Notes: generated by a model from the letters alone, not told the origin. A stretch of 32,010 nucleotides of DNA from Candidatus Bathyarchaeia archaeon (GCA_049512935.1 JBEKWR010000023.1:1-32010), one strand, 5' to 3'. Shown: positions 7,286-28,129, counted from the first letter of the stretch. Numbers and translations are program-made.

Positions 7286-7579
7286 AGAACTTGGGTTTGT
7301 GCGCATGGTTGCTCCTAATTGAACGTGTTCGTCGAGTTAGTTGTTCATGACAACGAATTTACTGAAGTGCCCCTTGTCGATAGAGGTGGAGTAGTATCAG
7401 AACGGACGCCCCCTGCTATTCCTGCAAACTTGACGTTAAATCAAGCTTCACAAAAAAATTGTTGCCTGCCGTAACTTCGACATTGAGTTTCCACGGTGAG
7501 GTGATGGATTATTCCAAAAAACAAAGGGGATATAACAAACCCCGCGTTAGTAAACATAAGGAACGTGAGATGAGAAACC

Positions 7580-7966
7580 GTGTTTGTTCATGCAAGCATT
7601 CGTTCAAGTAACCTTGAGAGGACAATCGATTTTTACACAAGGCTTTTAGGCTTGAAAGTTTTGACCCGGCGAGAAATCAAGCAGACGAACGCTGAAATCG
7701 TTTTTCTTCAAGACCCGAAGGGTGAAGGGTGCACGCTTGAGTTGACTTTTTACCGTGACCAAAAGAAGTTCAGGCAGCCTGAGTATGAAGAGCGATTGTT
7801 TGACCATTTAGGCTTCGCCGTGTCGGATATGAGCCGCACCATCGCTGCGATGCGAAAGGAAAAGGTGACCATCACCGATGAGCCTTTCAAGCTGGGGTCA
7901 GACGGGCCGACGATAGCCTTCGTTGAAGACCCAGATGGAACGCTCATAGAGTTAATTGAACGATAA
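7580..7966 (+). CDS. VOC family / lactoylglutathione lyase-like protein
   Basis: HASIR, LELT, DHLGF, FVEDPDGTLIELIE metal-ligand motifs. Confidence 0.92.
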   Translation: MFVHASIRSSNLERTIDFYTRLLGLKVLTRREIKQTNAEIVFLQDPKGEGCTLELTFYRDQKKFRQPEYEERLFDHLGFAVSDMSRTIAAMRKEKVTITDEPFKLGSDGPTIAFVEDPDGTLIELIER

Positions 7967-13093: not shown

Positions 13094-13229
13094 ATCAAAC
13101 AGGTTCTTCAAGTCTTCAAAAAAACCATCAATTAACTTCATTTCAGATTCATATAAATGAAAAACCTTAATTCTTCAACGGCAGACTGCCTGTGGATTGA
13201 TTACCGATCTCGCAATGTTTTGTTTAAGC

Positions 13230-14072
13230 TTATTTCTTAAGGTTATTGCTGTTTAAGGAGAATCTGTATGGTCTTTCCGATTTATCTACGGTTATTAATC
13301 CTTTGTTTACTAATCGAATCAGTTCTCTGCCGACAAATCCTCTTGCCATCTTCATTTCTTTCGCAATACTGTCAATGGTGGTGTTCCCTTTTTTGATTTG
13401 CCCAAGTAATGTTTTTTCCATCAACTTTTGTTGTGCAGCCATCCTAAGAGGTTTTTCGATTGGAGACGTAATGCCGTGTTTTTCTTTTAGTCCACGTAGC
13501 GTTTGATAAAGACCGTCTTCCCAGCAGATTCCGGACAATTCAGATTGGCTTCTGCATTCTTGACCGATAATATCCCAATTAAGGCCTGACCGCGCGAGTA
13601 CTCCAGTATCATCTAGGTCTACCTCTCTTGAAGTAATGCCTTTGAACAGAAAAAGGTCCTCCTTTGAAGCCATGAGAATTTTCAAGTGGTTACCTTGATA
13701 GATTGCGGTTGCTCTATTTTGCATCTCATTAGAAAGCGTTAGCTTGCCGCAGACTTTGTTTAGGAATATGTCCCATCGGAAGCTTTCCAGGTTTTCCAGT
13801 ATGGCGCTTGTCTGCACTTCATTGTATGGTCCAGTGATAACAAGAGGATTTGGCTCAGTGTAGCCCAACGCTTCGAGGGTTACTTTTAGGTTGTTCAGAT
13901 CATCTTGGTTTGTAAGAATAACATCAATGTCTTTTGTCGCGTCTTTAACACCGTAAAAAGACATTGCGCCCCCACCTATGAGGTAAAGCGTCAAAGGGTG
14001 CTTCATTGCCGCATTTAGTTTATCGAATTCCTGTTGGAGGTAGTTCTTGTCAAAAGAACGTCTTTGAATCAT
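13230..14072 (-). CDS. Nucleotidyltransferase (DUF6036/AbiEii-like) with C-terminal wHTH; putative toxin
   Basis: YLIGGGAM...KDATKDIDV motif, EDLFLFK...REVDLDD; ATGA overlap with the upstream gene. Confidence 0.8.
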   Translation of the reverse strand: MIQRRSFDKNYLQQEFDKLNAAMKHPLTLYLIGGGAMSFYGVKDATKDIDVILTNQDDLNNLKVTLEALGYTEPNPLVITGPYNEVQTSAILENLESFRWDIFLNKVCGKLTLSNEMQNRATAIYQGNHLKILMASKEDLFLFKGITSREVDLDDTGVLARSGLNWDIIGQECRSQSELSGICWEDGLYQTLRGLKEKHGITSPIEKPLRMAAQQKLMEKTLLGQIKKGNTTIDSIAKEMKMARGFVGRELIRLVNKGLITVDKSERPYRFSLNSNNLKK

Positions 14073-15016
14073 TCAGCAGTCACCAAGTAGTCCTTAGCTT
14101 TCGTTATAAACTCCTCCCACGTGGGCAATGAGTGATCTTTTGGTTGCACATGAGTATCTAGGAATTGAAACAACTTGGTTATTTCATTTGCAAGCCCAAA
14201 CCTGTTGGCTGCTTGTAACAGATAGGTTTTATCAATTTGTTGACAAGTTTTTTTGAGCAGCAAAAGCGCGTAGGTTTTGTACCTGACATTCGTCGGTTCT
14301 ATAAGTAGAGTATGCAGTAACACATCTTCAAGTTTGAGCGTTTTCTTGTTTGTTGAATAAAAGTAATAATCAAACTCAGAAATTAGAGGAAGGTCATATT
14401 GAGGGAACACTGAAAGAGCTGTTTTGAAAAAGTTCGGCATGGATGGCTTGGTGTCATTTGGAACTCTTATCAGAAATTCCATGTCCTTTTGCCAGAGAAT
14501 AGCCGAGTTTTCCGAGAACGTACGAGCGAGCTTGTTTGCGAAGAACTTTTGGTATTCACGCAAGAACTCAATTAGAAGATTGAATTGCGGGTTAATTGCG
14601 TTTGTTGGTGTGATTATTCCTCTAGCCTTCAAATTTCTGCGGTATCTCCACAGAGTGCTCTTTGGGGCGGTTGCAAGATTTTTATTGTTTTCTAACAACT
14701 CAAATAGAATTCTGAGGGCTTTCCCGCTCAATATATTATCCCAATCAACGTAGTCGTATGTTAAGATTAAGTCTCTTAGAACTATTGCATGTTTGAAATC
14801 AGCAATAAATACCTGTTTTTTGTTATTTTTTTTGACTGTTCTCGCAAGCCCTTTTGTTTGAAGCTTTTGCAGATTATAGGAAAGAAGTGATGGGCTTACG
14901 GAGAGTGTAGTCTCTATTGAAGAGAGGTCGTGTTTTCCTTTCGCTATCTCTTCAAGGATTTTTAATTCTGCTTTGCTGAAGGAGTATTCTGAGCTTGCGG
15001 TTTTCATAAGTTCCAT
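14069..15016 (-). CDS. wHTH regulator, putative AbiEi-like antitoxin
   Basis: N-terminal FSKAELKILEEI...SPSLLSYNLQKLQTKGL HTH; translationally coupled to the nucleotidyltransferase. Confidence 0.7.
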   Translation of the reverse strand: MELMKTASSEYSFSKAELKILEEIAKGKHDLSSIETTLSVSPSLLSYNLQKLQTKGLARTVKKNNKKQVFIADFKHAIVLRDLILTYDYVDWDNILSGKALRILFELLENNKNLATAPKSTLWRYRRNLKARGIITPTNAINPQFNLLIEFLREYQKFFANKLARTFSENSAILWQKDMEFLIRVPNDTKPSMPNFFKTALSVFPQYDLPLISEFDYYFYSTNKKTLKLEDVLLHTLLIEPTNVRYKTYALLLLKKTCQQIDKTYLLQAANRFGLANEITKLFQFLDTHVQPKDHSLPTWEEFITKAKDYLVTAE

Positions 15017-15058
15017 TATATTGAAATACTATATAAGCTTTTCAATCTTATGGAACTT
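15008..15058 (-). promoter_or_regulatory. 19-bp inverted-repeat operator enclosing a TATA box
   Basis: AAGTTCCATTATATTGAAA (15008-15026) and TTTCAATCTTATGGAACTT (15040-15058) match at 17/19; spacer contains TATATAAG. Confidence 0.75.
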
Positions 15059-15132
15059 TAAAAGTTTAAACAACTGATTAAAAAATCTCTTCCAAAAGCC
15101 AACAACCCTAAACAGTCTCCCTACGCTTGTAG

Positions 15133-15215
15133 CTAGACCAGCAAAACCCATGCATGCGTTGTCATAGTCAAGGTTGGTCTGCGATGGCAGCCCGCCACGC
15201 TAACCTGTCAGGTCC
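15133..15215 (+). ncRNA. Possible truncated SRP RNA S-domain-like fragment
   Basis: GATGGCAGCCCGCCACGCTAACCTGTCAGGTCC resembles the SRP helix 6-to-8 junction but lacks the GGAAG..AGCA continuation; local stems are possible. Confidence 0.3.
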
Positions 15216-15291
15216 AAACCTCAGCGGATTTACCATTCTCTTAAACCATCTTGAAAAATCTTATATTGCTTGTTTTTTCTTAGAGTAGATT

Positions 15292-15720
15292 ATGGCAAAA
15301 GTCAAGGATATCATGACTAAGGAAGTTGTTTCAATAGGCGTTAACAACAGCGTTTTTGAAGCGGCGGTGCTGATGGGTTCAAGCCAAATCGGCTGCTTGG
15401 TGATAGTGGACGGAGAATCACCCGTTGGAATAGTCACTGAAAGGGACATCGTAAGAAGAGTAATCGCGAAAAGACTGCCTTTAGACACTAAGGTTTCAGA
15501 CATCATGTCCAAATCCCTCATCACGGTTGACCCTGGCGCTTCGCTTAAGGAGGCGGCGCGGCTCATGTCAAGCAACAAGATTCGAAGGCTCCCAGTCATG
15601 CAGCAGAACAAGCTTGTCGGAATCGTTGTGGCTGCCGATTTAGTGCGTGACCTCGGGAAGAAATCTGTTTCCGAGGAAATAATTGAGGCTATGGGACGTC
15701 ACCCTGCCACCCTGACCTGA
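15292..15720 (+). CDS. CBS domain protein
   Basis: KVKDIMT...GIVTERD and VSDIMS...IRRLPV tandem CBS repeats. Confidence 0.93.
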   Translation: MAKVKDIMTKEVVSIGVNNSVFEAAVLMGSSQIGCLVIVDGESPVGIVTERDIVRRVIAKRLPLDTKVSDIMSKSLITVDPGASLKEAARLMSSNKIRRLPVMQQNKLVGIVVAADLVRDLGKKSVSEEIIEAMGRHPATLT

Positions 15721-15860
15721 ACGTGAGACCCGCCTTTTTCCAAGTCGTGACTGAACGGGCTAAGAGAAGCCATAAAAGAGAGCGTTAAGCTACTTAGAAA
15801 TAGGAAATTCACGGCTGTTTTCGATTGTAACAGCTGGCTGTTTGGGATGGTTGAGAAAAA

Positions 15861-17180
15861 ATGAGCATCTTTAGAGCGTATGATATTCGAGGAATCTACG
15901 GTGAGGATTTGACGGTTGAAATCATGGAGAGAATCGGCAAGGCTGCGGGAACCCTGTGCCCTGGCAACTTCACGGTTGGAAGAGACTTCAGGGAGCACAG
16001 CGACGAGCTGGAGAAAGCGTTCATCTCAGGCGTATTAAGCACAGGTTCAAACGCCCACTTAATCGGCACCTGCCCAGCCAGCCTCTGCGTCTTCGCTAAC
16101 TGGCATCTGAAAAACGACGTCGCCGCCTACATCACCGCTTCACATCTGCCTGCGAACTGGAACGGCGTGAAGTTTTTCCACCAGGACGGCGTCGGCTTCT
16201 TCGAGGAGGAAAACAAGAAGCTTGAGCAGATTCACCTTTCAGGCGAATTCAAGAAGGGCGTTGGCAAAGCGGAAAACATCGCTGGGATGGAAGAAAAATA
16301 CATCGCTTTCATCAAGGAAAGAATAAAGCCGAAAAAGCTGAAGGTGGTGATTGATTTCGGGAACGGCGCAGCCTGCCTGCTTGTCCCCAAAATTCTGAAA
16401 AGCCTAAACGTTGAAGCCAAGTACCTGTTTGATTGGCCTGACTCAACATTCCCAAACCGTGACCCTGAACCTAAACCTGAATCGCTGGGCGCGCTCAGCA
16501 AGAAGGTTGTTGAGGAGAAGGCGGATTTGGGAGTGGCTTTTGACGCGGACGGCGACCGCGCTCTTTTCGCCGACGAGAAGGGTAGGGTCATGATGGCGGA
16601 GCAAAGCGCAGTTTTGCTGATGCGTGACCTGATGAAGACAAGAAGGGGACCCGTCGTCGCCAACATCGAGTGCTCCAGCCTGCTTGATGAGGAAGCCGCA
16701 AAGTTCGGTCAGCAGGTTTTTCGCATTCCCGTGGGGCACACGTTTCTGGTTCAGCAGACCAAGGAGCACAACGCCATTTTAGGCGTGGAGAAGTCGGGGC
16801 ACATATGCGTGCCAAAGTTCACGTGGTTCGACGACGCCATTATCAACAGCGTGTACCTGATGGAGATAGTTTCAAACCTTGGCAAGAAAGTCTCCGAAGT
16901 CGTGGATAAGCTTCCGAAGGAGTTCTTTGACCGCGTAGAGCTTGACAGCACCGACGAGGCAAAGTTCGCGTTGGTTGAACGGGTAAAAGAGGCGGCAACG
17001 GAGCGGTACAGCAAGATAACGGCGATAGACGGCGTGCGAGTGGATTTTCCCGATTCGTGGGCGTTGATTCGCGCGTCAAACACCAGCCCGAAGATAAGGC
17101 TGACCATTGAGGCTAAAAGCCAAAAGAGACTTCAAGAGTTAAAAGCTGAGATGATGAACCTAATCGTGAGCGTAAGTTGA
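15861..17180 (+). CDS. Phosphomannomutase/phosphoglucomutase
   Basis: IFRAYDIRG, TASHLP, DADGDR, EKSGH, RASNTSP. Confidence 0.95.
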   Translation: MSIFRAYDIRGIYGEDLTVEIMERIGKAAGTLCPGNFTVGRDFREHSDELEKAFISGVLSTGSNAHLIGTCPASLCVFANWHLKNDVAAYITASHLPANWNGVKFFHQDGVGFFEEENKKLEQIHLSGEFKKGVGKAENIAGMEEKYIAFIKERIKPKKLKVVIDFGNGAACLLVPKILKSLNVEAKYLFDWPDSTFPNRDPEPKPESLGALSKKVVEEKADLGVAFDADGDRALFADEKGRVMMAEQSAVLLMRDLMKTRRGPVVANIECSSLLDEEAAKFGQQVFRIPVGHTFLVQQTKEHNAILGVEKSGHICVPKFTWFDDAIINSVYLMEIVSNLGKKVSEVVDKLPKEFFDRVELDSTDEAKFALVERVKEAATERYSKITAIDGVRVDFPDSWALIRASNTSPKIRLTIEAKSQKRLQELKAEMMNLIVSVS

Positions 17181-17220
17181 ATCATTGCCGCTCCAGACTT
17201 TTCCAGCGTTGGCCTGAATG

Positions 17221-18906
17221 TTACTTTGACTTGTTTGGAGCCTCGCCACTTGAGGCACCGTGAATGTATCTTTTTCCTCTAAGAAGCGACGCGACAGCTG
17301 CGACGCCTGCTAACACGGCACTCACATAGAACGCGCTGTGCAGGGAAGACATGAAGGATTTTGCTATCGCATTTGGGAACCAGTGCAACCCAGTGAGAGT
17401 GCTGATTGCTTGGCTGCTTAGTGATGCCGCTACGCTGGGGGGCAGCTGGGCTAAGATTGACGCGACGGGGTTGTAGCCTAAGAAGGCGGAGAAGAGCGAT
17501 TGCGTCGGCGAGAGCGCAGTGAAGTAGTGGACCAACTGAAGCGCTCCTGCGTTGGTTAAGGAGGAAGCGAAGGCTGATGGAAGCCCGTTTGAAAGCGAGA
17601 AAACGATGACTGCGAAGAACGCGGCGATGCTTGCCACCATCCCTGTGTTCTGCAGCGTGGTTCTCATTCCAGATGCGACGCCTCTGTTCTCAGGCGGCAC
17701 CGAGTTCATTATCGACGCTGTGTTAGGCGAAGCGAACATGCCCATCCCGAGCCCCTGCACGTATATCAACAAAGCGAAGTCGAGGTAGTCGAAGTTGTAG
17801 GGAAGCGTTGCCAAGCCAAGGAATGTCACGCAGGTAATTACCATGCCGAGGCTAGCCAAACCCCTCGCACCGTACTTGTCCGATAGGGTTCCGCTGATTG
17901 GCCCCATGGTTACGAACCCAGCTGAGAGGGGAAGCAGGTAGACTCCAGCCCAGAAAGGCGTGTCTGTGTAGCTGACCCCGTGCAGAGGAAGCCAGATGCC
18001 CTGGAGAAGTATGCTGAGCATGATCATCACGCCGCCCCTTGCCATTGAAGCGAGAAAACCAGCAAATATTCCCGCGGAGAACGTGCGAATCTTGAAGAGG
18101 CTGAGCTTGAACATGGGCGATTTGACTACTCTTTCCACGAAGGGGAACGCCACGAGCAGCGCAGCGCCAGATGTCAGGCCAGCTATCACATATGGGTCAG
18201 ACCAGCCCATGCTTGAGGAGCCGTAAGGAAGCAGCCCGTAAGTAAGCGAAATCAAAAGCACGGTTAAGCCAACGGCGAATGTGACGTTGCCCCAAACATC
18301 AATCTTCTCGCCTCTGCACATCGTTCCCAGCTCCTTTAGCTTCCAGTAAGACCACACCGCCCCAAAGGTGCTCACGGGAACGCTGACCAAAAAGACAAGC
18401 CTCCAATCGATCGTCGCCAAGGTGCCGCCTATGACGAGCCCTATAAACGAGCCTGCCAATGCCGCGACCTGATTTATGCCAAGAGCCTTGCCCCGCTCAT
18501 TCGTTGGAAACGCGTCTGTTATTATCGCGGCGCTGTTTGAAAAAAGGAAGGCCGCTCCGACCGCCTGAACGATTCGGAAAAAGATCAGTTCCAACGCGCC
18601 AAGGTCTCCCATGTTCGGGGTGAGGAAAAGAAGGATGGAGCCGACGGCGAATATTGCGAACCCCAAGTTGTAGAGCCTGACCCTTCCGAAAATGTCCGAG
18701 ATTCGCCCGAACGACACCAGAAGCGTTGCGGTGACGATCAAGTAGCCGAACAAAATCCAGAGCAGGTAAGGAAACGAAGTCGTCGGGTTCAGGTTTATGC
18801 CGCGGAAAATTGCTGGAAGAGCTATGAGCACTATCGTGCCGTCTATGGAAGCCATCAAAGTGCCAAGCGTCGTGTTGGAAAGCGCAACCCACTTGTACTC
18901 AACCAT
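17221..18906 (-). CDS. MFS transporter (DHA2/EmrB-like)
   Basis: GRISDIFGR motif A, ERGKALG, many transmembrane segments. Confidence 0.95.
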   Translation of the reverse strand: MVEYKWVALSNTTLGTLMASIDGTIVLIALPAIFRGINLNPTTSFPYLLWILFGYLIVTATLLVSFGRISDIFGRVRLYNLGFAIFAVGSILLFLTPNMGDLGALELIFFRIVQAVGAAFLFSNSAAIITDAFPTNERGKALGINQVAALAGSFIGLVIGGTLATIDWRLVFLVSVPVSTFGAVWSYWKLKELGTMCRGEKIDVWGNVTFAVGLTVLLISLTYGLLPYGSSSMGWSDPYVIAGLTSGAALLVAFPFVERVVKSPMFKLSLFKIRTFSAGIFAGFLASMARGGVMIMLSILLQGIWLPLHGVSYTDTPFWAGVYLLPLSAGFVTMGPISGTLSDKYGARGLASLGMVITCVTFLGLATLPYNFDYLDFALLIYVQGLGMGMFASPNTASIMNSVPPENRGVASGMRTTLQNTGMVASIAAFFAVIVFSLSNGLPSAFASSLTNAGALQLVHYFTALSPTQSLFSAFLGYNPVASILAQLPPSVAASLSSQAISTLTGLHWFPNAIAKSFMSSLHSAFYVSAVLAGVAAVASLLRGKRYIHGASSGEAPNKSK

Positions 18907-19000
18907 GAAATTTGCACCCCTTGCATGGTCAGCCAGCGTTACGGAATTATCAGGCTTTTCTTCACTTCTTACTTAATAATTTATGGGTATCCTCTCAAGA

Positions 19001-19045
19001 GGCTGTAGATTCCGACTCTCGATTCTCGCGCCCGAAGCTACATGC
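19001..19045 (-). repeat. Highly degenerate tRNA-Pro-derived repeat (copy 5)
   Basis: GGCTGTAGATTCCGACTCTCGATTCTCGCGCCCGAAGCTACATGC; last 18 nt match the tRNA at 16/18, and AGATT...ACTCTCG is in register with copy 2. Confidence 0.55.
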
Positions 19046-19082
19046 AATTCTCCACGAAACCAAACGATTTTTCGAATCCGAA

Positions 19083-19472
19083 TTATCTGGTTTGCTTGGG
19101 GTTGTACCTGTTTTTCTCTGAGAAGAAGTCCATCACTCGGGTTCTCTGAAAGAATTTGGCAGAATGAGCCGCGCCTGCCGGAATAAGGTATTCGTCGCCT
19201 TTCATGAAGACTCTCGGCTGACCAGCAATGTTCATCTCCATTTTTCCATCGATAACGATTCCCCACTGAGGATAACTGTGGCTGTGCGCAGGCAGATCGG
19301 TGCCCGCTTCAAACTGGAAAAAAACCAGCTGACTCGACTCCGCCTGGTGAATCCATGCTTTTGCGCCTTCAATTTGAATTTCCGCTTTCGGCAGACGAGT
19401 TATAACTTCGGGGTAACCTGAAGCCTTCTGAGACAGTGTTTTAACCAAGCGTTTACACCTGTGGATATGCAA
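19083..19472 (-). CDS. Cupin domain protein; start probably slightly downstream
   Basis: PAHSH..QWGIVIDG...GDEYLIPAGAAH. Confidence 0.88.
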   Translation of the reverse strand: MHIHRCKRLVKTLSQKASGYPEVITRLPKAEIQIEGAKAWIHQAESSQLVFFQFEAGTDLPAHSHSYPQWGIVIDGKMEMNIAGQPRVFMKGDEYLIPAGAAHSAKFFQRTRVMDFFSEKNRYNPKQTR

Positions 19473-19735
19473 GTTGCGGAAAGATAGAAAAACCCTTTGG
19501 ATTTGCTTCGCAGGTTGCAGACTTTAAGGTTGGGCTGGTTAGGAGCCCTGCGCTCACGTTTGGGAATTGCCTTTTCACTTTCAAAGCCTCTTCTTTCCAA
19601 AGAACAACGCCCATGTCAATTTATTATCAGAGCAAGTGCACTCATTTTCGATAACTTTAAAGAAAGCTGGGAAGTTCTCAATGAAGTTTGGTTTGCGGGA
19701 CCATGCTCATTCTGAATTTGACTGGGGCTGATTGT

Positions 19736-20182
19736 CTATGGTGATAGTCCAAGTTGCTTCATGAATCCGACAACATCATAGAACAGTCTTTCTTCCACGA
19801 TTTCGCCGTTTTTCCATGTGGCAACTGTGCAAAATTCAAGTTTCGCCGTCTTCCCCGTAGGCTGGATAATCTTTCCATCTGCACCTTTCATTGGTCCTTT
19901 CATAGTCACTGTCCAATCAGCCACGGTGCATGTGTGGTTTTCGTCTCCAAACGCTATCTTGTAAGGATTGTTGACTAATCGATTGTCGAAGGTTTTGAAG
20001 AACTCAGTTGCTTCGACGTCGTGGTTGTGTCGTCCTCTTGTAGGGTCGGGTCGAGCGGGCCAGTACACGGCGACGTCTTCTCTGTGACGCTTCTTAAACG
20101 TCTCCCAAAGCGGACTCCCAGGTCCTGCATTCCAAGCATCATCAAGAGTCTTCATCAACTCAAGATTTTCCTTAGAACCCAT
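19736..20182 (-). CDS. SnoaL-like ester cyclase / NTF2-like protein
   Basis: LDDAWNA...PTGK...GEIVEERLFYD..GFMKQLGL. Confidence 0.9.
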   Translation of the reverse strand: MGSKENLELMKTLDDAWNAGPGSPLWETFKKRHREDVAVYWPARPDPTRGRHNHDVEATEFFKTFDNRLVNNPYKIAFGDENHTCTVADWTVTMKGPMKGADGKIIQPTGKTAKLEFCTVATWKNGEIVEERLFYDVVGFMKQLGLSP

Positions 20183-20310
20183 ATTGCTAACCTCACTATC
20201 TGTTTTACCCGTCTAATGCTAATAAACTTGTAACGCGATTAATGAACTGAAAAAACTGGCGTTTTTGTGAATGGATTTCAGTTTTATTGTTTCGCTAAAA
20301 AAGCGCAGGT

Positions 20311-20637
20311 TTAGATTTGATATTTTGGGCGTTTGGCTTCTTTTAACCAAAATTGGTTGTCATCAACCCTGATAACTTGAACTTCAATGACGTTTTTAGG
20401 GCAAGTCATTGCCGCGCGTAACTTGGTGGGCAGGTCGGGTTTTGCCAGAAGCGTCATTCTAGACTCCTCTAACTGGTCTGCTACGCGCTCGGCTTTTTTG
20501 TTGGCGTAGCCGCCGTACTTTACGCTTTTTCCGTCAGTGATGGCTTTGTCAAAGTCGTCTTTGCTGCATTGGATCAGCTTGGCGCCATCTCGGATAAACC
20601 AGTATGGAAGAGCCTTACTCATAATAATCGTCGGCAA
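20311..20637 (-). CDS. Hypothetical protein
   Basis: About 103-108 aa ORF; likely ATG start at MSKALP. Confidence 0.6.
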   Translation of the reverse strand: MPTIIMSKALPYWFIRDGAKLIQCSKDDFDKAITDGKSVKYGGYANKKAERVADQLEESRMTLLAKPDLPTKLRAAMTCPKNVIEVQVIRVDDNQFWLKEAKRPKYQI

Positions 20638-20841
20638 TAGGGTTTAGGCGACTCCTAATTAACGTTGTCTTCGCTGACGCAGATTAGCGCCTCAGAAGTA
20701 GAATTCAAATCGATCATTACGAGCAACCAGTCCGCTTCACACTGACGTGTTTATCATCATAGGCGCCCTAAAACAGCGATTACAACTGCAAAACCATTTT
20801 AAAAACGCATAATAATTTTAGAAGAAAAATTCTGCGGAGTG

Positions 20842-20982
20842 TTAACGTTTGAGGGTAAGCGTAAGCGAATGGCCTTTGTGGGCAGCCATCCTGTGGATTC
20901 TTAATTCTTCAGGATTCTGAAATTTCGCGGAACACAACCTGCACTTAAATTCCTGACCGTAAATGACTTTGCTATCCAACAT
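20842..20982 (-). CDS. Small C2H2 zinc-finger protein (46 aa), not in the ORF track
   Basis: MLDSKVIYGQEFKCRLCSAKFQNPEELRIHRMAAHKGHSLTLTLKR = F-x-C-x2-C-x3-F-x5-L-x2-H-x4-H; GGAGAAGGTTGAGG upstream. Confidence 0.8.
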   Translation of the reverse strand: MLDSKVIYGQEFKCRLCSAKFQNPEELRIHRMAAHKGHSLTLTLKR

Positions 20983-21188
20983 CAGCCTCAACCTTCTCCA
21001 TCGGTTCGCAAAAATTGCTTCTTACAAACCGCTTAGCAGAGTACAACTAAGCCACTTATAAACCAACGATTAATTTCCGCCAAAATCACCATTCATTTTC
21101 GTCAAAATTTGTGTTTACTAACGTCAATTTTTCAGGCATGTTAAAACTTAAATAGAAATTCTAACAATTCTAAAGATGGGTAATTGAA

Positions 21189-21410
21189 ATGTCAATAGAT
21201 ATAAAACTTGAACGTGGCGTCAGAGGATACACCATCGTCAGGAAAAAATGCCCGAACTGCGATGCTGAATTGATCTTCAAGATCCACAAGAACGCAATCC
21301 ACGACGTAGGCGGAGAAGGAATGTATTATCCTGAAGAAAACGTTGTCCGCTGCAAAGTCTGCATGAGCACATTCAAGTACGAAACCAAACTTAAGGCTGA
21401 AACCAAGTAA
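21189..21410 (+). CDS. Small zinc-ribbon protein
   Basis: CPNC...CKVC. Confidence 0.75.
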   Translation: MSIDIKLERGVRGYTIVRKKCPNCDAELIFKIHKNAIHDVGGEGMYYPEENVVRCKVCMSTFKYETKLKAETK

Positions 21411-21561
21411 GCAGCAACCAACAAAAAGAATCCGTGCTATCGCAACTACTTCATTAGCTTACGCTCAAAAACTTGATTCTGAAGGTTAGTCTCCAACTTA
21501 CGATTTTTCAAGGATGTTGTTTCCTGCAAAATGTCAAGCCCAAAATCAAGGACTGCTGTTT

Positions 21562-21597
21562 GCCGGAAGGATTGAACTCTCGTCTATAACGCCCGAG
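21562..21597 (-). repeat. Degenerate tRNA-Pro fragment (copy 4)
   Basis: GCCGGAAGGATTGAACTCTCGTCTATAACGCCCGAG aligns to the T-arm through the anticodon of the tRNA and copy 2. Confidence 0.75.
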
Positions 21598-21802
21598 AGT
21601 ATCATTACAAACCAAGTTTACAACAATATTCCAATAAGCAACTTTCTATTATCAGCTGATCATTTGACGTATTAGGCGTCGTGCCGCATTCCTTTTCAGC
21701 GTAGTTATTTCATGTTATCTTTTGACGCTGAGTCTGTCTTAAGGACCAAAGAGCAAGGGCTTTCTCAAAGATTATAAGATAATCCGTTGCTATAAAGTAG
21801 AC

Positions 21803-22210
21803 ATGAAAGCTTGCGTGCTTTACATTTCACGCACAGGAAACACCAAACGTTTAGCCGAAGCAATCGCAGATTTGTTAAAAGCACCTATTTTCAACATAAC
21901 CTCCGCCCCTGACCCTTCACTTGTTTTAGACTTCGACTTGTTGATTATCGGCACGCCAGTTATGGGTCTTAAACCAGCTCCCGAAGTGCACTCGTTCGTT
22001 AAGCGCTTGCCAAACAGCACAGAAAAGAAAACAATCCTTTTCTGCACATACGCAATAAAACAAGGCGGAACCTTAAAAGTTCTGGAAAAAGAGCTAACAA
22101 CCAAGGGGTACGTTAACGTGTTGAGCGTTTCAAAACGAGGGCTCAAACCAAGCAAAACTGACTTACAAGACGTTCTATGCCAGATAAGCAACGCAGCAGA
22201 ACCCAAATGA
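21803..22210 (+). CDS. Flavodoxin family protein
   Basis: YISRTGNTKRLAEAI FMN loop, IIGTPV, LFCT. Confidence 0.9.
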   Translation: MKACVLYISRTGNTKRLAEAIADLLKAPIFNITSAPDPSLVLDFDLLIIGTPVMGLKPAPEVHSFVKRLPNSTEKKTILFCTYAIKQGGTLKVLEKELTTKGYVNVLSVSKRGLKPSKTDLQDVLCQISNAAEPK

Positions 22211-22351
22211 AAACGGGAAGCCCCTTTAAGAATTAATTAAATTGAAGTGGATTTCCTTGATTTGAAACGATTTCAAAAACATTCCGATATCTTCACGCAA
22301 TTTACTATTAGCATAAACGTTAAGAGCAATTGGAAACGATAAGGCTTAGAT

Positions 22352-22828
22352 ATGGCTGATGTGACCGCTTATCTTTTTGCTGGTTTCATACTACTTGTTG
22401 TTTTCCTTTATCTTGCACTTTGGGCTCTAACTAAGCTTCGTATACCTACCAGTGCAAGAAAAGAATATGGAATCAAGTCAATCACTGAACAGGGCATACT
22501 TGTAAGGAGCATAAGTGAAAAGCGGATTGCTGACTACTTTGATAGAATCAACATAAAGTATCAATACGAACGCGGGGCGGGCTATGGTTTGGGTCACCCA
22601 GACTTTTACCTGCCCGACTACGATGTGTACGTCGAATATTGGGGACTAGTTAATGCGGATGACTTGCTAACACGTGAGAGATATGTCAGGCACATGAAAA
22701 GAAAAATGGCAATCTACCATAAGCACAACCTCAGGTTGGTTTCGATATATCCACAGAACATGGAAAACTTGAATTGGATATTCAGACAGAAGTTCAGACA
22801 AGCCACTGGTTATGAACTCGACAACTAA
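22352..22828 (+). CDS. Membrane-anchored PD-(D/E)XK-like nuclease domain protein
   Basis: N-terminal TM helix; VRSISEKRIADY...YQYE...PDFYLPDYDVYVEYWG. Confidence 0.7.
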   Translation: MADVTAYLFAGFILLVVFLYLALWALTKLRIPTSARKEYGIKSITEQGILVRSISEKRIADYFDRINIKYQYERGAGYGLGHPDFYLPDYDVYVEYWGLVNADDLLTRERYVRHMKRKMAIYHKHNLRLVSIYPQNMENLNWIFRQKFRQATGYELDN

Positions 22829-22837
22829 AGGAGCAAT

Positions 22838-22927
22838 TAGTGGGGCTTCCCGGAATTTGAACCGGAGTCTATAGCGTTCTCGGCATGGCTCGCATTTAGG
22901 AGCCGTGTGCCCGAGGCTACAAGCCTG
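22838..22927 (-). pseudogene. tRNA-Pro(CGG) fragment with a 33-nt 37/38 intron (copy 3)
   Basis: Aligns from D-arm to 3' end; insert 22877-22909 lies one base 3' of the anticodon; CCA mutated to CTA; 5' acceptor strand missing. Confidence 0.85.
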
Positions 22928-22979
22928 AGTTGAGTGCTGGCTGGATGGATTTGGCACCAAAAAACTTATTTGCAAACTT

Positions 22980-23015
22980 ATCTATTTAATAGATCATATG
23001 ACATCTAAAATAGAT
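22980..23015 (+). promoter_or_regulatory. Palindromic operator candidates at the MNT-HEPN start
   Basis: ATCTATTTAATAGAT (22980-22994) and related ATCTAAAATAGAT (23003-23015) flank the ATG at 22998. Confidence 0.45.
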
Positions 23016-23621
23016 CAATTGTTCGGTTCAAAAACCCGTGTAAGCTTGCTAACCAAACTTTTGTTAAACCCTGACGCAAAATTCTACACGCGTGAGCTTT
23101 CACGGGACCTTCGCATACCCTACAGCATGCTATATAAAGAACAAAAAAAACTCGCATCGCTAGACATAGCTAAGGAGGAAAAAAAAGGCAAAATCACACT
23201 TGTATCGGCAAACAAAGAGTTGCCTTATTTTATTGACCTAAAGAATTTAATCATGAAAACCGCTGGATTAGGTGACCTGTTAAAAAAAGGTTTCTCAGAC
23301 TTACAGTGTATTCGCTTCGCGCTTGTCTATGGTTCTATCGCGAGCGGGCAGGAAACTGCAAGAAGCGATATCGACCTTTTAGTTGTAGGCGAAATAAATG
23401 AGGAAAAAATATTAAACGTCACAGACCTAATCGAGAAGCAAGTTGGCAGAGAAGTAAACTATATCCTATGGAGCAACGACGAATTTATGCAAAGACTCAA
23501 AAGCAAACACCATCTACTTGCAGACATTGCCAAGAAACCTGTCATAATGGTCAGGGGAAACGAGGATGACTTTAGAGGAACTATTGAAGAACCGAATCAT
23601 AAGTCGAATAGACCCCAATAG
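22998..23621 (+). CDS. wHTH-fused minimal nucleotidyltransferase (MNT antitoxin)
   Basis: LFGSKTRVSLL...FYTRELSR HTH; VYGSIASG...SDIDLLVVG MNT motif. Confidence 0.9.
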   Translation: MTSKIDQLFGSKTRVSLLTKLLLNPDAKFYTRELSRDLRIPYSMLYKEQKKLASLDIAKEEKKGKITLVSANKELPYFIDLKNLIMKTAGLGDLLKKGFSDLQCIRFALVYGSIASGQETARSDIDLLVVGEINEEKILNVTDLIEKQVGREVNYILWSNDEFMQRLKSKHHLLADIAKKPVIMVRGNEDDFRGTIEEPNHKSNRPQ

Positions 23622-24009
23622 GAATATAGCGTTAAAGTCTATCAAGCGAGCTAAAAGAGATATTGAAGCAGCCAAAACGTTGATTGCAACATGCCAATTC
23701 GACTGGTCACTAGCTGTTTCCTACAACGCTATGCTTGCAGCTGGACGCGCACTAATGTTCGACAAGGGATATCGACCATCAAGCACTGAAGGCCATTTGG
23801 CAGTTGTCCAGTTTCTAACCATAACGTTAGGGGAAGAATCAGGCAGCAGAATGGTTCTAATAATGAATGGCATGCGCAAGAAGAGACACCGCATAGTCTA
23901 CGAAGAAATGGATATAGTCTCTCTGAAAGAAGCGAAACAGGCGGTTGAATGGGCAGAAGAATTCATCGAGTTAATAGCGAACCAAATCAATCAAAACCGA
24001 GAAATGTAA
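23566..24009 (+). CDS. HEPN domain protein (putative RNase toxin)
   Basis: AKRDIEAAK...SYNAMLAAGRAL...EGH...RKKRHRIVYE; overlaps the MNT gene. Confidence 0.88.
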   Translation: MTLEELLKNRIISRIDPNRNIALKSIKRAKRDIEAAKTLIATCQFDWSLAVSYNAMLAAGRALMFDKGYRPSSTEGHLAVVQFLTITLGEESGSRMVLIMNGMRKKRHRIVYEEMDIVSLKEAKQAVEWAEEFIELIANQINQNREM

Positions 24010-24011
24010 GT

Positions 24012-24084
24012 TGGTGGGGCTGGAGAGATTTGAACTCTCGTCCATAATGCCCGAGGCTACAAGCCTGGAACAAGCGACCGACAG
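24012..24084 (-). pseudogene. Near full-length degenerate tRNA-Pro(CGG) (copy 2)
   Basis: About 62/74 identical to 26666-26739; keeps CCA; T-stem replaced by GAGAG/CTCTC; 5' GGGG lost. Confidence 0.88.
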
Positions 24085-24141
24085 GATGCATCAAAGGTGT
24101 GTTAGCTTGTCGTCCAGTCGACTGATTTCTCGGGTTTCTAC

Positions 24142-24666
24142 TTATGTTGGCCACAATTTGTTTCTTAGGACAGGTGGGAGGTCATCAGGCTCAGGCAGCG
24201 TCCCAATTGATAAACAATATTTTACCTTGTTGAGGTCAAAAACAAACTTAGGCGGAACACCACCCGCAACAATTAAGTGTTCATAACTTTGTCTAGCGCC
24301 AAACTTTACGCTCGTCAATACTGCCTTAAAAGTTGGAACATAGAGTTCAATAATCTTAAGCCTCTCCAGCGTAGAAATGTCGGGTGCTATTTCGAAATAA
24401 CGAATATCAATTGATTGTGACATAACTATCGGAGTGTGAACCCCTCCAACAAAATCAACAATGGGCAAGCCATCCTCTTCAACGGGTTGGGTCCATACCG
24501 TTGCAAGGTTCCAATGAAACCTACTGATTACTGTTTTTCTTTTACCATTTGAATAGACAAAAACTGGCTCATAATCTAGTTTCTTGTATAAATCCCAACG
24601 CCAATAAAAATAATGAATGTTGTTTTGTTCATGAACCCTTTCTGGGCAACACTCGCAAATCTTCAC
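24142..24666 (-). CDS. Hypothetical protein (cassette cargo)
   Basis: 174-aa AT-rich ORF abutting the upstream gene's stop. Confidence 0.65.
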   Translation of the reverse strand: MKICECCPERVHEQNNIHYFYWRWDLYKKLDYEPVFVYSNGKRKTVISRFHWNLATVWTQPVEEDGLPIVDFVGGVHTPIVMSQSIDIRYFEIAPDISTLERLKIIELYVPTFKAVLTSVKFGARQSYEHLIVAGGVPPKFVFDLNKVKYCLSIGTLPEPDDLPPVLRNKLWPT

Positions 24667-25463
24667 TATCTGATGCGATAAACAATAGCCCTCCCTAGCT
24701 TCTCACCGTTTTTTTCTAGTATTGCCGGTTTTAACTCTTTATCTCTTGCCTCTTTCTTTATCATGGCAATTTCGTTAAGCAGACTTGTGAATTTATGGAA
24801 ACTTTCCAGATTACAGTTATTATCCTTTGCTTGAACAAGCAAATTCATTGATTGGTCATGTAGGTCATGCATAACATCGTAATTCAAGGTGTTTTTATCA
24901 TAAGCAGATTCGGCAAAGCGAAAAGCGTTTTCCATATTTTCAAGAAATTTAATGTCTGCCTCTGAAAGCATTTGTTTTTCTATATTTGATGATATTTCCT
25001 TTAAAGCACTGGTTTCGTCCATAAAATTGCCTGAAATAGCATCGATTCCCATGTCAGCATTAGCAGTGACAAAAACCAATAGCTCTTTTCTGTTGCATTT
25101 AGTCGAGACAAAATCCCATTGCTCCAAGGAGTCAATTATAGGGCTCACCTTATTGCGGCTTATGTCACTGAATTCTGAAATTCCGCTTATCGTGGGTTTA
25201 AGTTCTTTGCAAGAGCCCGCCAGTCGTGCTGTTATCAATACTTTGAGCGAGTCAATTACGCTTTCCCTTAATCCATTAATTACTTCGGTTGAAAAATTGG
25301 GATCAGATAATGCCTTTCTTGCCAACTTGCATTGAAATAGGACAACGTCTCGTTCTTTGATACCGGTTCTTCTCAGTTTCTCTGCTACAACGGTTGGCTT
25401 GAGTAATACAAAGTCTGAGAACTCTAGTTGAGCCTTCCGTAAAACAATCTCTGTCTGGGACAC
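24666..25463 (-). CDS. Hypothetical protein with internal wHTH (cassette cargo); start reassigned to GTG 25463
   Basis: PTISGISEFSDISRNKVSPIIDSLEQWDFV HTH-like segment; the track's start at 25751 would read through a tRNA remnant and overlap another ORF. Confidence 0.65.
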   Translation of the reverse strand: MSQTEIVLRKAQLEFSDFVLLKPTVVAEKLRRTGIKERDVVLFQCKLARKALSDPNFSTEVINGLRESVIDSLKVLITARLAGSCKELKPTISGISEFSDISRNKVSPIIDSLEQWDFVSTKCNRKELLVFVTANADMGIDAISGNFMDETSALKEISSNIEKQMLSEADIKFLENMENAFRFAESAYDKNTLNYDVMHDLHDQSMNLLVQAKDNNCNLESFHKFTSLLNEIAMIKKEARDKELKPAILEKNGEKLGRAIVYRIR

Positions 25464-25533
25464 TGCAATCACGCATGCATTGTATGCATTGCATGCAATA
25501 TTAACATTACGGAGCTGATGATACCCTAAAGGC

Positions 25534-25587
25534 GGTGGGCTGGAGAGATTTGAACTCCGTCCATGACGCCCGAGGCTACAAGCCTGG
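25534..25587 (-). pseudogene. Degenerate tRNA-Pro(CGG) fragment (copy 1)
   Basis: GGTGGGCTGGAGAGATTTGAACTCCGTCCATGACGCCCGAGGCTACAAGCCTGG; two 1-nt deletions relative to copy 2; weak similarity continues to about 25601. Confidence 0.85.
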
Positions 25588-25629
25588 TCATAATCAGCCA
25601 CCACGAATGCAAGCCTTTCCTCAAATTGT

Positions 25630-26505
25630 TCATGCTTGCTCAGGACGTGTGGAGCCAGGGGGTGGGGATGGGACATGAACAGGAGAGCTTGCAGGGCTTG
25701 CAGGCGCATTCGATTCGTTTGGTGACGTTCGGTCAGCATAGACCGGGACAACTTGTCTTATATCCACTTCATTGACCAGATGCATGAAGTCCCCGCACCA
25801 GCTGCACTTGGCGGTGTTCATCGGCTGCTCCGACTGCCCGCAATTGGTGCAAGTCTTGAAGGCAGGAGAATAGCCAGCATGGAATATCCTGTCGATGATT
25901 GTGTTAATGCGGTTCAGTTCGCTCTGGTCATGCGCAATTAACTGGTTTTCGACGTTAATCTCATGCTGTTCCTGCGCGGTCCGTGCCTGCGCATCTGGAT
26001 TTGGAACCACTTCATTCCTGTAACCTCCAGAACCCGCAAAAAACTGGAAGTTTTTCTGCTCCCCGGGCTCCGTGTTCAGCGTACCGAAAATTGGCGGCAG
26101 CATGTAGGGCTCGTATGTACTTTTGGTCTCCGTTGTTTGAGTCTTTGCGATGTTCCGCTGATGGATGTTTATGTAATTTTGGATGTAACCAATTCTGAAG
26201 GCGTAATACCCCGAAAAGCCTCTAAGCACCTGCGTTGGCCACTCATCGAAGGGAACGTTTCCATCGAGCAATTTCTTTATTATGGATGCGTGTCTCCTGC
26301 AGAGAATGAACGATGGAGATTGCTCGTACCCGGGTAAATAGACCCCTTGGTCGTCTCGGTTACTGTTAGGATATATCTTCAACTGGCAGACGAAGCACGC
26401 TTCGAGGTTCTTGGAATGGAACCGCTGATAACTGGGAAGCTGCCGTACGGGCTGAACGGGTTTGGTCGACTGAGGTAACGGCTGCTTGTTTCTCAAAGGT
26501 TTCAT
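25630..26505 (-). CDS. Hypothetical protein with zinc-binding motifs and Pro-rich termini (cassette cargo)
   Basis: CFVC...CRRH at the N-terminus; CTNC...CSWC ribbon near the C-terminus; TATATA box at about 26529. Confidence 0.7.
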   Translation of the reverse strand: MKPLRNKQPLPQSTKPVQPVRQLPSYQRFHSKNLEACFVCQLKIYPNSNRDDQGVYLPGYEQSPSFILCRRHASIIKKLLDGNVPFDEWPTQVLRGFSGYYAFRIGYIQNYINIHQRNIAKTQTTETKSTYEPYMLPPIFGTLNTEPGEQKNFQFFAGSGGYRNEVVPNPDAQARTAQEQHEINVENQLIAHDQSELNRINTIIDRIFHAGYSPAFKTCTNCGQSEQPMNTAKCSWCGDFMHLVNEVDIRQVVPVYADRTSPNESNAPASPASSPVHVPSPPPGSTRPEQA

Positions 26506-26665
26506 CAGTTTTAATCGATAGGTCTCAATATATAAGCTTTAAGTTTCAGCTTTTGAACGATATTTTTCGTTTTTTCGATTATAATAATACAGCTGTTGCG
26601 ACAGCACTAAGTACGGTTATGCAGGCAATGGCTGATGATTACTCGTCCTCGCTCTATCAGTTGCA

Positions 26666-26743
26666 TGGTGGGGCTGGCCGGATTTGAACCGGCGTCTATA
26701 GCGCCCGAGGCTACAAGCCTGGACCAAGCTAGCCGACAGCCCC
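26666..26743 (-). tRNA. tRNA-Pro(CGG), intronless, CCA encoded
   Basis: GGGGCTG acceptor stem, D-arm AGCTTGGTCCA, anticodon arm GTAGC-CTCGGGC-GCTAT, GCCGG-TTCAAAT-CCGGC, ACCA; TTTAAA box upstream at about 26800. Confidence 0.95.
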
Positions 26744-26957
26744 CGTTCAAAGTTGGCTCGGTTTTTAGCGGGTTCATAGAATAATGCCTGCTTGGCTTTA
26801 AACTTTAACGGTTTAGAATGTTTGCTGTTTACCATGTTTCTTTGTTTTTTTGGGGAAGCCATGCTCCTGTTTTTCCCTACGCAACTTGCAACTTGTTGTT
26901 GATGATGATGGCTTTAACCACACGACTTAAACCTGAACTTGCTGCTAAAAGAAGCGA

Positions 26958-27569
26958 CTAGCTTAAGCCCTCGGTTGCCGCAGAGGCAGTCGGGTTCGCA
27001 ATCGTTTCAGGCTTGATTAGAGGTTGGAGAATGTGTCCATGGTAGAGTCTTGCGGCTAGGCATAATGCGGCGCCCGCTATTGCGAAGTAGAAGGACAATT
27101 GGAAGCTTCCTGAAACTAGCGCGGATACGGTGGCTCCACTAGTCCAGCTTCCAGGTATGGTGGCTGTTGCTGAACCGTTCAATGGAATGTTTACGCCGAA
27201 ATGTCCCGCGACTAACACGATTACCACCAGGAGAACGATGAAGCTTACTACGGTGTATAACGGTTTTTTCCATGAGAAGCCGAGCAGTTGCTTAGCGTAA
27301 GGTTTGGTGGGAACCAGCGAGTAAATCAGCATTACTAACCCGCAGGCTGTGAATGTCAAAATGGTTATGAGGTTCAGCGCCCAGATTAGCGGTATCGTGA
27401 ATTGGTCGCCGAACAAGCCGAAATTCGTGTAGATAGGGGAAGCATTAATCCTGATGAAGTCTTGACCAATCGTTAACTGCCACCAGGGCTCGAAAAGGGA
27501 GATAACAAGCATCACCAGCGTGATTATTCCAGCGGCGAGACCTAACCAGTTTATTTGTCTCACGATCAA
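26958..27569 (-). CDS. Hypothetical multi-pass membrane protein
   Basis: Four hydrophobic segments, N-terminal PWW; overlaps the upstream gene by 4 nt. Confidence 0.8.
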   Translation of the reverse strand: MIVRQINWLGLAAGIITLVMLVISLFEPWWQLTIGQDFIRINASPIYTNFGLFGDQFTIPLIWALNLITILTFTACGLVMLIYSLVPTKPYAKQLLGFSWKKPLYTVVSFIVLLVVIVLVAGHFGVNIPLNGSATATIPGSWTSGATVSALVSGSFQLSFYFAIAGAALCLAARLYHGHILQPLIKPETIANPTASAATEGLS

Positions 27570-28129
27570 GTCCCTCCTGTGACAAGCGATCCAATGTTGT
27601 TTATCTGGGGGATTTGGATGTTGATTCCGCCAAAGTTAACGGTCACGTTCTCCAAGGAGATGTTGAGGTTGCCGCTTTGGTATTCAGCTTCAAGCTGGTT
27701 AATGGCGCTTTGACTAAGGGTTCCCGTAGCGTTTATTATTCCACTTGCACCTGGAGCTATGTTGATCGGCTGTATCGACACGTCGCCTAACGGGGTGTTG
27801 TTTTCACCGACTACCTCGGCTGAAAAATGGTTGATTGAAATTTGACTGGTTAACGGATTCGTGAAGTTAAAGGGGTAACTAAACGCTCCCGTGGCTGAGT
27901 CATACTGCGGTTGCCCTATAGCTTGGGGCATCTGAAAGTGTGATATTGACTGGGACAGCTGGGATGATGACTGCGAACCGTTGGAGCCTCCGCCGCCCAG
28001 CAGGTCTTGGAATTGGGGGGGAAGAACTATACCGATCGGGTTATTTCTGTAAACGTAGGCGAGACCTGCTATGGGAGCAACTACGATCGCTATGGAAAGG
28101 ATTGTTAAGGCAATCTTGACTTTATCCAA
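27566..28129 (-). CDS. Membrane-anchored protein, LEA-2-like
   Basis: N-terminal TM; FNFTNPL...LGDV...INIAPG beta-sandwich pattern. Confidence 0.7.
   Translation of the reverse strand: MDKVKIALTILSIAIVVAPIAGLAYVYRNNPIGIVLPPQFQDLLGGGGSNGSQSSSQLSQSISHFQMPQAIGQPQYDSATGAFSYPFNFTNPLTSQISINHFSAEVVGENNTPLGDVSIQPINIAPGASGIINATGTLSQSAINQLEAEYQSGNLNISLENVTVNFGGINIQIPQINNIGSLVTGGT

Follow-up and report, generated by a model that had tools for sequence, protein, structure and literature searches.

A truncated copy of a tRNA-Pro(CGG) gene, here called R3, carries a 33-nt intron at position 37/38 that the intact tRNA-Pro(CGG) gene 3.8 kb away lacks, and on its sequence features R3 is best read as a dead recombination scar in which a genuine bulge-helix-bulge (BHB) intron has been stranded. 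The window analysed is the whole of a 32,010-nt contig (C23) from an archaeal metagenome-assembled genome (G000; 2.3 Mb, 47% G+C, 93% complete). Our explanation as a whole, which joins a scar bearing a BHB intron to an att-type origin and an imported tRNA copy, has in our estimate a probability of roughly 55%.

The R3 remnant and its surrounding array

A single intact tRNA was called in the window, tRNA-Pro(CGG) at 26743–26666 on the minus strand (ARAGORN; Rfam RF00005, 54.3 bits). Profile searching revealed four tRNA-Pro remnants, R1 to R4, all of them downstream of the resident gene and on the same strand (Table 1). A same-strand repeat of the tRNA 3′ part downstream of a complete gene is an attR-type feature. 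The array spans 21554–26743 (about 5 kb), and its remnants separate cassettes of 1.1–1.5 kb without an integrase. Four copies of a 15-nt tRNA-Pro core lie on one strand within 3.8 kb, an arrangement unique to G000 among 120 genomes of the genus; shorter tRNA-Pro arrays were seen in G095, G117, G108, and G016. The distal remnant R4, although strongly decayed, contains a 26-nt stretch identical to a remnant in the relative G117.

Table 1 Features of the tRNA-Pro array in the 32,010-nt window
Feature	Position	Strand	Characteristics and evidence
Resident tRNA-Pro(CGG), intact, intronless	26666..26743	-	T-arm GCCGG/CCGGC; acceptor GGGGCUG/CAGCCCC
R1, degenerate, nearly full-length tRNA-Pro copy	25537..25598	-	T-arm GAGAG/CUCUC; deletions; E 1.3e-07
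R2, nearly full-length (~6-76) intronless copy	24012..24083	-	T-arm GAGAG/CUCUC; CCA kept; E 6.8e-12
Cassette between R2 and R3	22928..24011	+	Nucleotidyltransferase (22998-23621) and HEPN (23566-24009); toxin-antitoxin-type pair
R3, 5′-truncated tRNA-Pro(CGG) remnant with intron, tRNA positions ~24-76	22838..22927	-	nhmmer E 2.3e-10, profile positions 23-77
R3 5′ exon fragment, positions ~24-37	22910..22927	-	CAGGCUUGUAGCCUCGGG; 3′ D-stem, anticodon-stem 5′ strand, loop with anticodon CGG
R3 intron at 37/38, 33 nt, predicted BHB	22877..22909	-	Alignment, folding, covariation
R3 3′ exon, positions 38-76, 39 nt	22838..22876	-	Decay marks; alignment
Segment between R3 and R4	21618..22837	+	158-aa protein (22352-22828) and flavodoxin gene (21803-22210); PHROG and family searches
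R4, strongly decayed tRNA-Pro remnant, distal to R3	21554..21617	-	61% in repeat family; E 0.0057

The coordinates and letters that the initial annotation gave for 22838–22927 and for the insert in sense orientation proved exact, as did its placement of the insert: alignment of R3 with the resident tRNA and with R1, R2, and R4 leaves one 33-column gap, at G37|C38. The 18 nt 5′ of the insert are identical in R3, the resident tRNA, R1, and R2, and the core from position 24 to G37 is common to every copy. In the 3′ exon, the T-loop contains one additional T (TTCAAATT) and the 3′ end reads CTA where relatives encode CCA. The T-stem is UCCGG/CCGGG and the acceptor 3′ strand AAGCCCC, and A66 is unable to pair with G7 of the resident 5′ half. 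At tRNA position ~24/25, R3 is joined to unrelated DNA, and a BLAST search of the genome found no orphan tRNA 5′ half elsewhere. Because no 5′ half is attached, R3 is non-functional and cannot make a tRNA. ARAGORN with introns allowed missed R3 and mis-called the intact intron-bearing genes of relatives as tRNA-Ser(cga) with a shifted intron; given that it misplaces the intron in these genes, the intron was placed by alignment.

The nucleotidyltransferase/HEPN cassette abuts the 5′ boundary of R3. The 158-aa protein between R3 and R4 gave weak nuclease/resolvase-like PHROG matches, and matches to it were found in 11 of the 120 genomes at E ≤ 1e-5 (10 besides G000); four other genomes hold clear homologues, with no tRNA within ±1.5 kb, the rest being weaker domain-level matches. 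The other cassettes encode a 291-aa protein of no family and two further unnamed proteins. No family was found through the ESM Atlas for the 291-aa protein or for a conserved 203-aa protein upstream of the tRNA; the commonest label in the Atlas cluster of the latter is Candidatus Bathyarchaeota, which is a taxon hint at most. A search for mcrA, intended to place the organism, gave no match.

No recombinase family was detected by Pfam in the ORFs of 13230–26505, and none by PHROGs and NCBIfam in the four unnamed cassette ORFs (22352–26505). The genome, at 93% completeness, contains one clear tyrosine recombinase, on contig C2. A weak tyrosine-recombinase fragment (18.8 bits; G000:C21:3949–4173, minus strand) lies ~225 nt from tRNA-Val(GAC) at C21:3647–3724 and may be another integration scar. 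An ORF running through R1 (24666–25751, minus strand, 361 codons) was considered as a split SSV-type integrase and rejected, as it matched no family in Pfam, PHROGs, or NCBIfam; the part of it over R1 looks non-coding.

A BHB intron with relatives in the genus

The CGAG of the R3 intron (22879–22882 in plus-strand coordinates), which lies 2 nt from the intron 3′ end, can pair with exon C32-U33-C34-G35, and the resulting 4-bp CUCG/CGAG helix is flanked by two bulges of 3 nt each, G36-G37-C(i1) and A-A-C38. The intron has an inner stem, GGCUC/GAGCC, with A.C and C.A mismatches further out, so that the inner helix h′ comprises A.C first, then C-G, A-U, C.A, and 5 bp. This is the geometry that had been described from the sequence beforehand, with GG^C and AA^C as the bulges. 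On folding, the 52-nt arm gave −21.5 kcal/mol against −12.75 ± 2.36 for shuffled sequences (z = −3.71), a value equalled by none of 200 shuffles. In the minimum free energy (MFE) and centroid structures, the 4-bp helix and the 3′ AAC bulge are retained, but an added G36-C or G37-C pair leaves the 5′ bulge drawn as 1–2 nt. The pair adjoining the 5′ bulge is A.C in R3 and G-C or G.U in intact homologues. The predicted BHB motif of R3 is slightly relaxed rather than textbook; the word canonical, as applied to it at first, is slightly generous for a decayed copy with A.C beside the 5′ bulge.

Comparison of eight homologous arms supported the structure. When it was imposed on them, 91.2% of cells were paired, as against 26–38% with the partners slid; the outer helix h, which is the 5-bp anticodon stem, was 100% paired and the central 4-bp helix 93.8%. 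Four pairs had changed on both sides, and the covariation score of 0.160 (shuffles, 0.111 ± 0.020) was reached by 6 of 500 shuffles, although the same test with six sequences was not significant (90/500). RNAalifold applied to four intact genes recovered the anticodon stem, the 4-bp helix, and the AAC bulge unaided and placed the inner helix in a different register. In five of the eight arms, the intron begins with CGCU, the first four letters of the 3′ exon, so that the two predicted splice junctions share a short direct repeat; in R3, only the C is present.

The features of R3 are those of archaeal hBHBh′ introns cut by the splicing endonuclease EndA, with which it shares the 37/38 site, the 4-bp helix formed by nucleotides 32–35 and the 3′ part of the intron, two 3-nt bulges with predicted cuts after the second nucleotide, and the anticodon stem as outer helix. 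EndA genes are present here as well, as two paralogues (PF01974, 100 and 82.4 bits) on contigs C25 and C10, each a 188-aa frame. Unlike those introns, R3 is without a tRNA 5′ half and its inner helix starts with A.C. Judged by alignment, folding, and covariation, the insert is a genuine, slightly decayed member of a family of putative BHB introns, with predicted splice sites.

The pattern of an arm with an insert was found in 6 of the 120 genus genomes. Four of these (G070, G082, G097, and G140) hold a complete tRNA-Pro(CGG) gene with a homologous 30–33-nt insert at the position of the R3 intron, and two (G000, with R3, and G020) hold a remnant. A metagenome scan returned 16 stretches, of which one matches the window exactly, two more contain intact genes with the intron, and 13 match by chance. 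The initial annotation would have been refuted had no related tRNA-Pro carried a similar 37/38 intron and had the insert been unable to form a BHB, but such homologues do exist in these 4 of 120 congeners and on the two metagenome contigs. These findings show that the intron family is still of the spliced type, as predicted from its BHB-forming capacity, in intact genes of a minority of species in the genus. The intron closest to that of R3 is the one in G082, with 25 of 33 nucleotides identical, and the introns differ from that of R3 by 24–33%. The 15-nt core is present in 106 of the 120 genomes, and an intronless arm in 100; the six core-holders that lack a match to the intronless pattern are the four intron-bearing genomes together with G122 and G142, whose intronless arms have a variant stem.

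The G020 remnant consists of the anticodon arm and intron alone (positions ~25–43), with unrelated DNA on both sides. Its 5′ boundary, AGGCUUG, is the same as that of R3, and like R3 it adjoins a toxin-antitoxin-type pair. A junction of unrelated DNA with position ~24/25 of an intron-bearing arm is thus present in two genomes, G000 and G020. The G020 locus (L031, on G020:C116) also contains a tRNA-Pro(UGG) at 954–1031 and a decayed second copy of it at 2765–2842; an MraZ-like/PIN pair (VapBC-type, 7146–7897) follows ~5 kb on and ends 28 nt before the intron-bearing CGG arm. In G005, an intact intronless gene stands at a contig end and a different contig starts with AGAA followed by the 3′ exon. 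This contig-start piece may be a further intron-bearing remnant, the four letters being thin evidence.

A covariance model of the intron-bearing gene was run against 151 genomes of the order; among the best 150 matches, which were listed ahead of a further 1,058, only G070 was of intron-bearing length. Nine longer matches were inspected and proved to be five tRNA-Pro(GGG), three tRNA-Pro(UGG)-like, and one tRNA-Gly genes with other introns, none of them CGG. In other genera and families of the order, tRNA-Pro(GGG) genes have introns of 19–29 nt at or near 37/38 (L185–L191), and tRNA-Pro(UGG)-like genes have short introns upstream of the anticodon (L184, L188, L189). The tRNA-Pro(GGG) of G000 itself is without an intron. 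A loose pattern scan of genome contigs, which returned at least 120 stretches, was uninformative: among the matches listed, all but two were bacterial, and the archaeal row L066 was a chance match.

Origin of the intron-bearing copy

We propose that mobile DNA and an intron-bearing copy of this tRNA became joined by site-specific recombination of the att type, acting in or close to the anticodon arm, and that the partner supplied an intronless 3′ part, which would leave the working gene intronless and the intron stranded in the scar. With a crossover 5′ of the intron, the intron and the 3′ exon would come from the target and the intronless 3′ part from the partner; with a crossover 3′ of it, the intron would be carried on the element's own site. 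The loop sequence is kept in both allele types because the intron begins with C (CGCU in relatives), as does the 3′ exon. The intron-bearing copy would be foreign to the recent lineage, having arrived with or inside mobile DNA, either as the internal scar of a composite element formed in an intron-bearing congener or as an intron-bearing attP. An internal scar such as R3 would travel passively within a composite element that was excised between distant scars, and integration on one side of the intron followed by excision on the other could move the intron between host and element in either direction. Several observations stand against such a mechanism. Searches with Pfam, PHROGs, and NCBIfam detected no integrase in the window, and the one clear tyrosine recombinase of the genome lies elsewhere, on contig C2; the contigs of four public sequencing runs (X2, X4, X5, and X6) showed neither excision nor alternative joints, although contigs drop rare variants; and R1 is more decayed than R2, which is a misfit with a simple chronological stack.

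The origin of the copy was considered in the light of relatives. On the 5′ side of the tRNA, above 26743, the order of genes is syntenic in relatives and comprises two unnamed proteins, an ERCC4 nuclease, a metallo-beta-lactamase-fold protein, and EF-1alpha. The two unnamed proteins (203 and 187 aa, 26958–28129, minus strand), which belong to no family, lie directly upstream of tRNA-Pro(CGG) in most relatives and diverge fast (30–65% identity). On the other side, the conserved downstream block begins only near 13100. G108, at 96% EF-1alpha identity the nearest relative, shares the resident allele and has, downstream of it, one nearly full-length remnant after 0.87 kb, followed by genes matching 15254–19505 of the window. 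G117 shares 19095–22211 with the window; ~600 nt from its flavodoxin gene, in the place occupied in G000 by the 158-aa gene and R3, lies an intronless remnant of the GAGAG type. In the flavodoxin stretch (window 21754–22211 against 5973–6430 of L035, from G117), DNA identity is 91.5%, as against 73–79% in the neighbouring shared DNA; this suggests that the segment was exchanged recently. Nothing corresponding to the cassettes of 22928–26665 is present in the loci compared from G108, G117, and other relatives.

Three types of tRNA 3′ half occur in the genus: CCCGG/CCGGG (with C, A, or G at 66–67), GAGAG/CUCUC with CAGCCCC, and the resident GCCGG/CCGGC. We examined their distribution on an EF-1alpha tree of G000 and 40 other genomes (the 20 most similar and 20 chosen to include every intron-bearing genome), which is a tree of one gene with a midpoint root and leaves out 64 of the 104 matching genomes. 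G000 pairs with G108 (support 100/99) inside an 18-row clade whose residents are of the GAGAG/CUCUC type in 15 cases, the resident type in two (G000 and G108), and CCCGG-CAG in one (G026). The CCGGG-AAGCCCC type of R3 has no representative in this clade, and residents with it occur only at 81–88% EF-1alpha identity. On basal branches of the major group of G000 are CCCGG-type alleles, among them G097 with an intron (91% EF-1alpha identity) and G073 with AAG. The intron-bearing genes sit on four scattered, deep branches: G097 is basal in the group of G000, and G082, G140, and G070 are in the other. The sisters G070 (with the intron) and G072 (without it) have the same neighbour gene directly after the tRNA and no scar; therefore, intron loss or gain also happens cleanly, without a retained insertion. 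The GCCGG/CCGGC 3′ half is itself scattered over distant branches (G000/G108, G020/G098, G029, and G134), as is expected if element-borne 3′ halves replace native ones.

The initial annotation had offered two origins, an ancestral intron-bearing 3′ half displaced by integration and a cassette brought from an intron-bearing host. Both are compatible with the data, which lean slightly towards import with mobile DNA. Import is favoured because the R3 allele type is absent from the 18-row clade, A66 cannot pair with the resident G7, R4 lies beyond R3 so that R3 is not the outermost scar, and the flavodoxin DNA beside R3 appears to be recently shared with G117, which has an intronless GAGAG-type remnant at the equivalent spot. 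On the other hand, no donor was found, the best intron match being that of G082. The CCCGG-type basal members of the G000 group, one of them with the intron, make an intron-bearing ancestor plausible; R1, R2, and the G108 remnant are nearly full-length tRNA copies, so the resident 5′ half may also have been replaced, which weakens the G7.A66 argument; and the tree is that of one gene from 40 chosen genomes of 104 with a match.

The alternative is that the ancestral allele was displaced in situ, an element with an intronless att site having recombined 5′ of 37/38, which would amount to intron loss by integration. We regard this as quite plausible, though short of even odds. The presence of intron-bearing genes on deep branches of both EF-1alpha groups fits an old intron lost many times; the decay of R3 (the T-loop T, CCA to CTA, and A.C in h′) is consistent with long residence; and G005, with its intronless gene at one contig end and AGAA plus 3′ exon at the start of another contig, has a similar layout. 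The allele type of R3, foreign to the clade around G000, the presence of R4 beyond R3, and the different remnant at the equivalent place in G117 all count against displacement in situ, as does the scarless difference in intron between G070 and G072. Whichever of the two origins applies, an intron-bearing anticodon arm would have taken part in site-specific-type recombination.

It is unlikely that the intron sat in the element's own attP with a crossover 3′ of it, in which case it would never have entered the working gene here. Recombination between an intron-bearing attP and an intronless attB has a precedent in the account of one archaeal tRNA gene (Sugahara et al., 2012; PMC3293823), and the G020 fragment, with arm and intron only beside a VapBC-type pair, resembles a carried site more than a displaced 3′ half. 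Nevertheless, a scan of 2.9 million viral contigs gave no match to the intron-bearing arm, neither R3 nor the G020 fragment has an integrase nearby, and the homologues of the 158-aa protein in four other genomes are not beside tRNAs.

The R3 array is real and is no assembly artefact. A 95-kb metagenome contig is 100% identical to the window over 8,509 nt (18659–27167), which takes in R4, R3, R2, R1, and the tRNA. Contigs from runs X2 and X4 span R3 with both flanks without a difference; that of X4, a run not flagged as a possible source, is 1,231 nt long and covers 21838–23068. The public runs with the stretch are labelled as peat and wetland metagenomes, with no RNA run among them. That assembly or binning joined different organisms at the repeated tRNA sequence is extremely improbable, for although public-run contigs do break at the tRNA repeats (24012 and 26665/26743), the identical 95-kb contig runs across the array and the tRNA and the X2 and X4 contigs bridge R3. 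It is hardly credible, too, that a pseudogene in decay acquired the 33 nt by random insertion or by duplication, as the loss of function and the other small changes in the copy might suggest, given the homologous inserts at the identical position in six intact genes, the compensatory pair changes, and the placing of the 4 nt that match the anticodon loop, exactly 2 nt away from the 3′ junction.

Comparison with known systems and implications

Integron and tycheposon-type tRNA-flanked arrays consist of small promoter-poor cassettes, with toxin-antitoxin pairs and copies of a recombination site, at one anchor. The present array is like them as they are generally known, but its sites are tRNA pieces and no platform integrase was found. 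With SSV1- and pNOB8-type elements and the integrated mobile elements of thaumarchaea, the locus shares a same-strand repeat of the tRNA 3′ part downstream of a rebuilt gene, and with archaeal integrative elements more widely the arrays that arise by repeated use of one site (Krupovic et al., 2019; PMC6563490). It differs from the elements treated in that account in having no whole or split integrase, in cassettes of just 1.1–1.5 kb, and in a repeat that spans an intron instead of the 3′ exon only.

The closest parallel is the tRNA-Thr(GGU) gene of Caldiarchaeum subterraneum, in which an extra intron was attributed to att-site recombination with an intron-bearing attP (Sugahara et al., 2012; PMC3293823). 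In both cases, a fragment and a full gene form direct repeats around an insert and differ in intron content. In that account, the extra intron gained by the working gene is at 24/25, the fragment comes from the 5′ part of the gene, and a recombinase is encoded in the insert. Here, the working gene is intronless, and the canonical 37/38 intron is in a 3′ scar, one of four, with no recombinase. By this analogy, the R3 locus appears to mirror the Caldiarchaeum case. A limited search of open-access literature found no equivalent case for tRNA-Pro or for this archaeal group.

The protection idea, that introns guard tRNA genes, is attributed to Randau and Söll in the same paper (PMC3293823), and the initial annotation had taken R3 to bear on whether introns block integration. 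This bearing is weak. A CGG-type remnant lies downstream of none of six intact intron-bearing genes (0.7–14 kb of downstream sequence, in unequal windows), and of 100 intronless genomes, about 10 contain another copy or a remnant; this comparison has no statistical power and says nothing on introns blocking integration. What R3 does show is that the anticodon arm recombined in spite of an intron at 37/38. Insertions in thaumarchaea were counted in 10 intron-containing and 29 intron-less tRNA genes, i.e. 10 of 39, in the data given by Krupovic et al. (2019; PMC6563490). In G082, a decayed tRNA-Pro(UGG)-like remnant (L028, G082:C33, ~2165–2209; E 0.026) lies 47 nt downstream of the intron-bearing gene. 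The UGG and CGG isoacceptors of tRNA-Pro share their 5′ halves, and elements might convert one isoacceptor into the other.

A bolder possibility, which we put forward tentatively and consider rather unlikely, is that the 37/38 intron of tRNA-Pro(CGG) shuttles in this genus between the chromosome and att sites of mobile DNA, by integration with a crossover to one side of the intron and excision or deletion with a crossover to the other. Homology would be offered by the anticodon-arm core as well as by the 3′ exon, and the intron starts with one to four letters of the 3′ exon, so a host could lose the intron cleanly and an element gain it, or the reverse. Shuttling would explain why the intron is kept in 4 of 106 genomes on scattered branches, why sisters differ without a scar, and why stranded arms lie beside toxin-antitoxin cassettes in at least two genomes. 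If true, the traffic of mobile elements, in addition to mutation or selection on splicing, would control whether a tRNA gene has an intron.

The gain and loss of introns in archaeal tRNA genes, and a possible role of introns in protecting these genes from integrating elements, are long-standing questions, and few direct genomic snapshots of such events exist. The R3 locus keeps both products side by side, an intronless working gene and a scar with the canonical intron, and it is a combination of an intron in a 3′ scar, an intronless gene, an integrase-less array, and living intron-bearing relatives in the same genus. The genus, which keeps the intron in the intact genes of a few species, lends itself to concrete tests, since the att core and the intron alleles are defined and 120 genomes are available for comparison. 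The locus indicates that a tRNA and its intron can be parted by recombination at tRNA genes.
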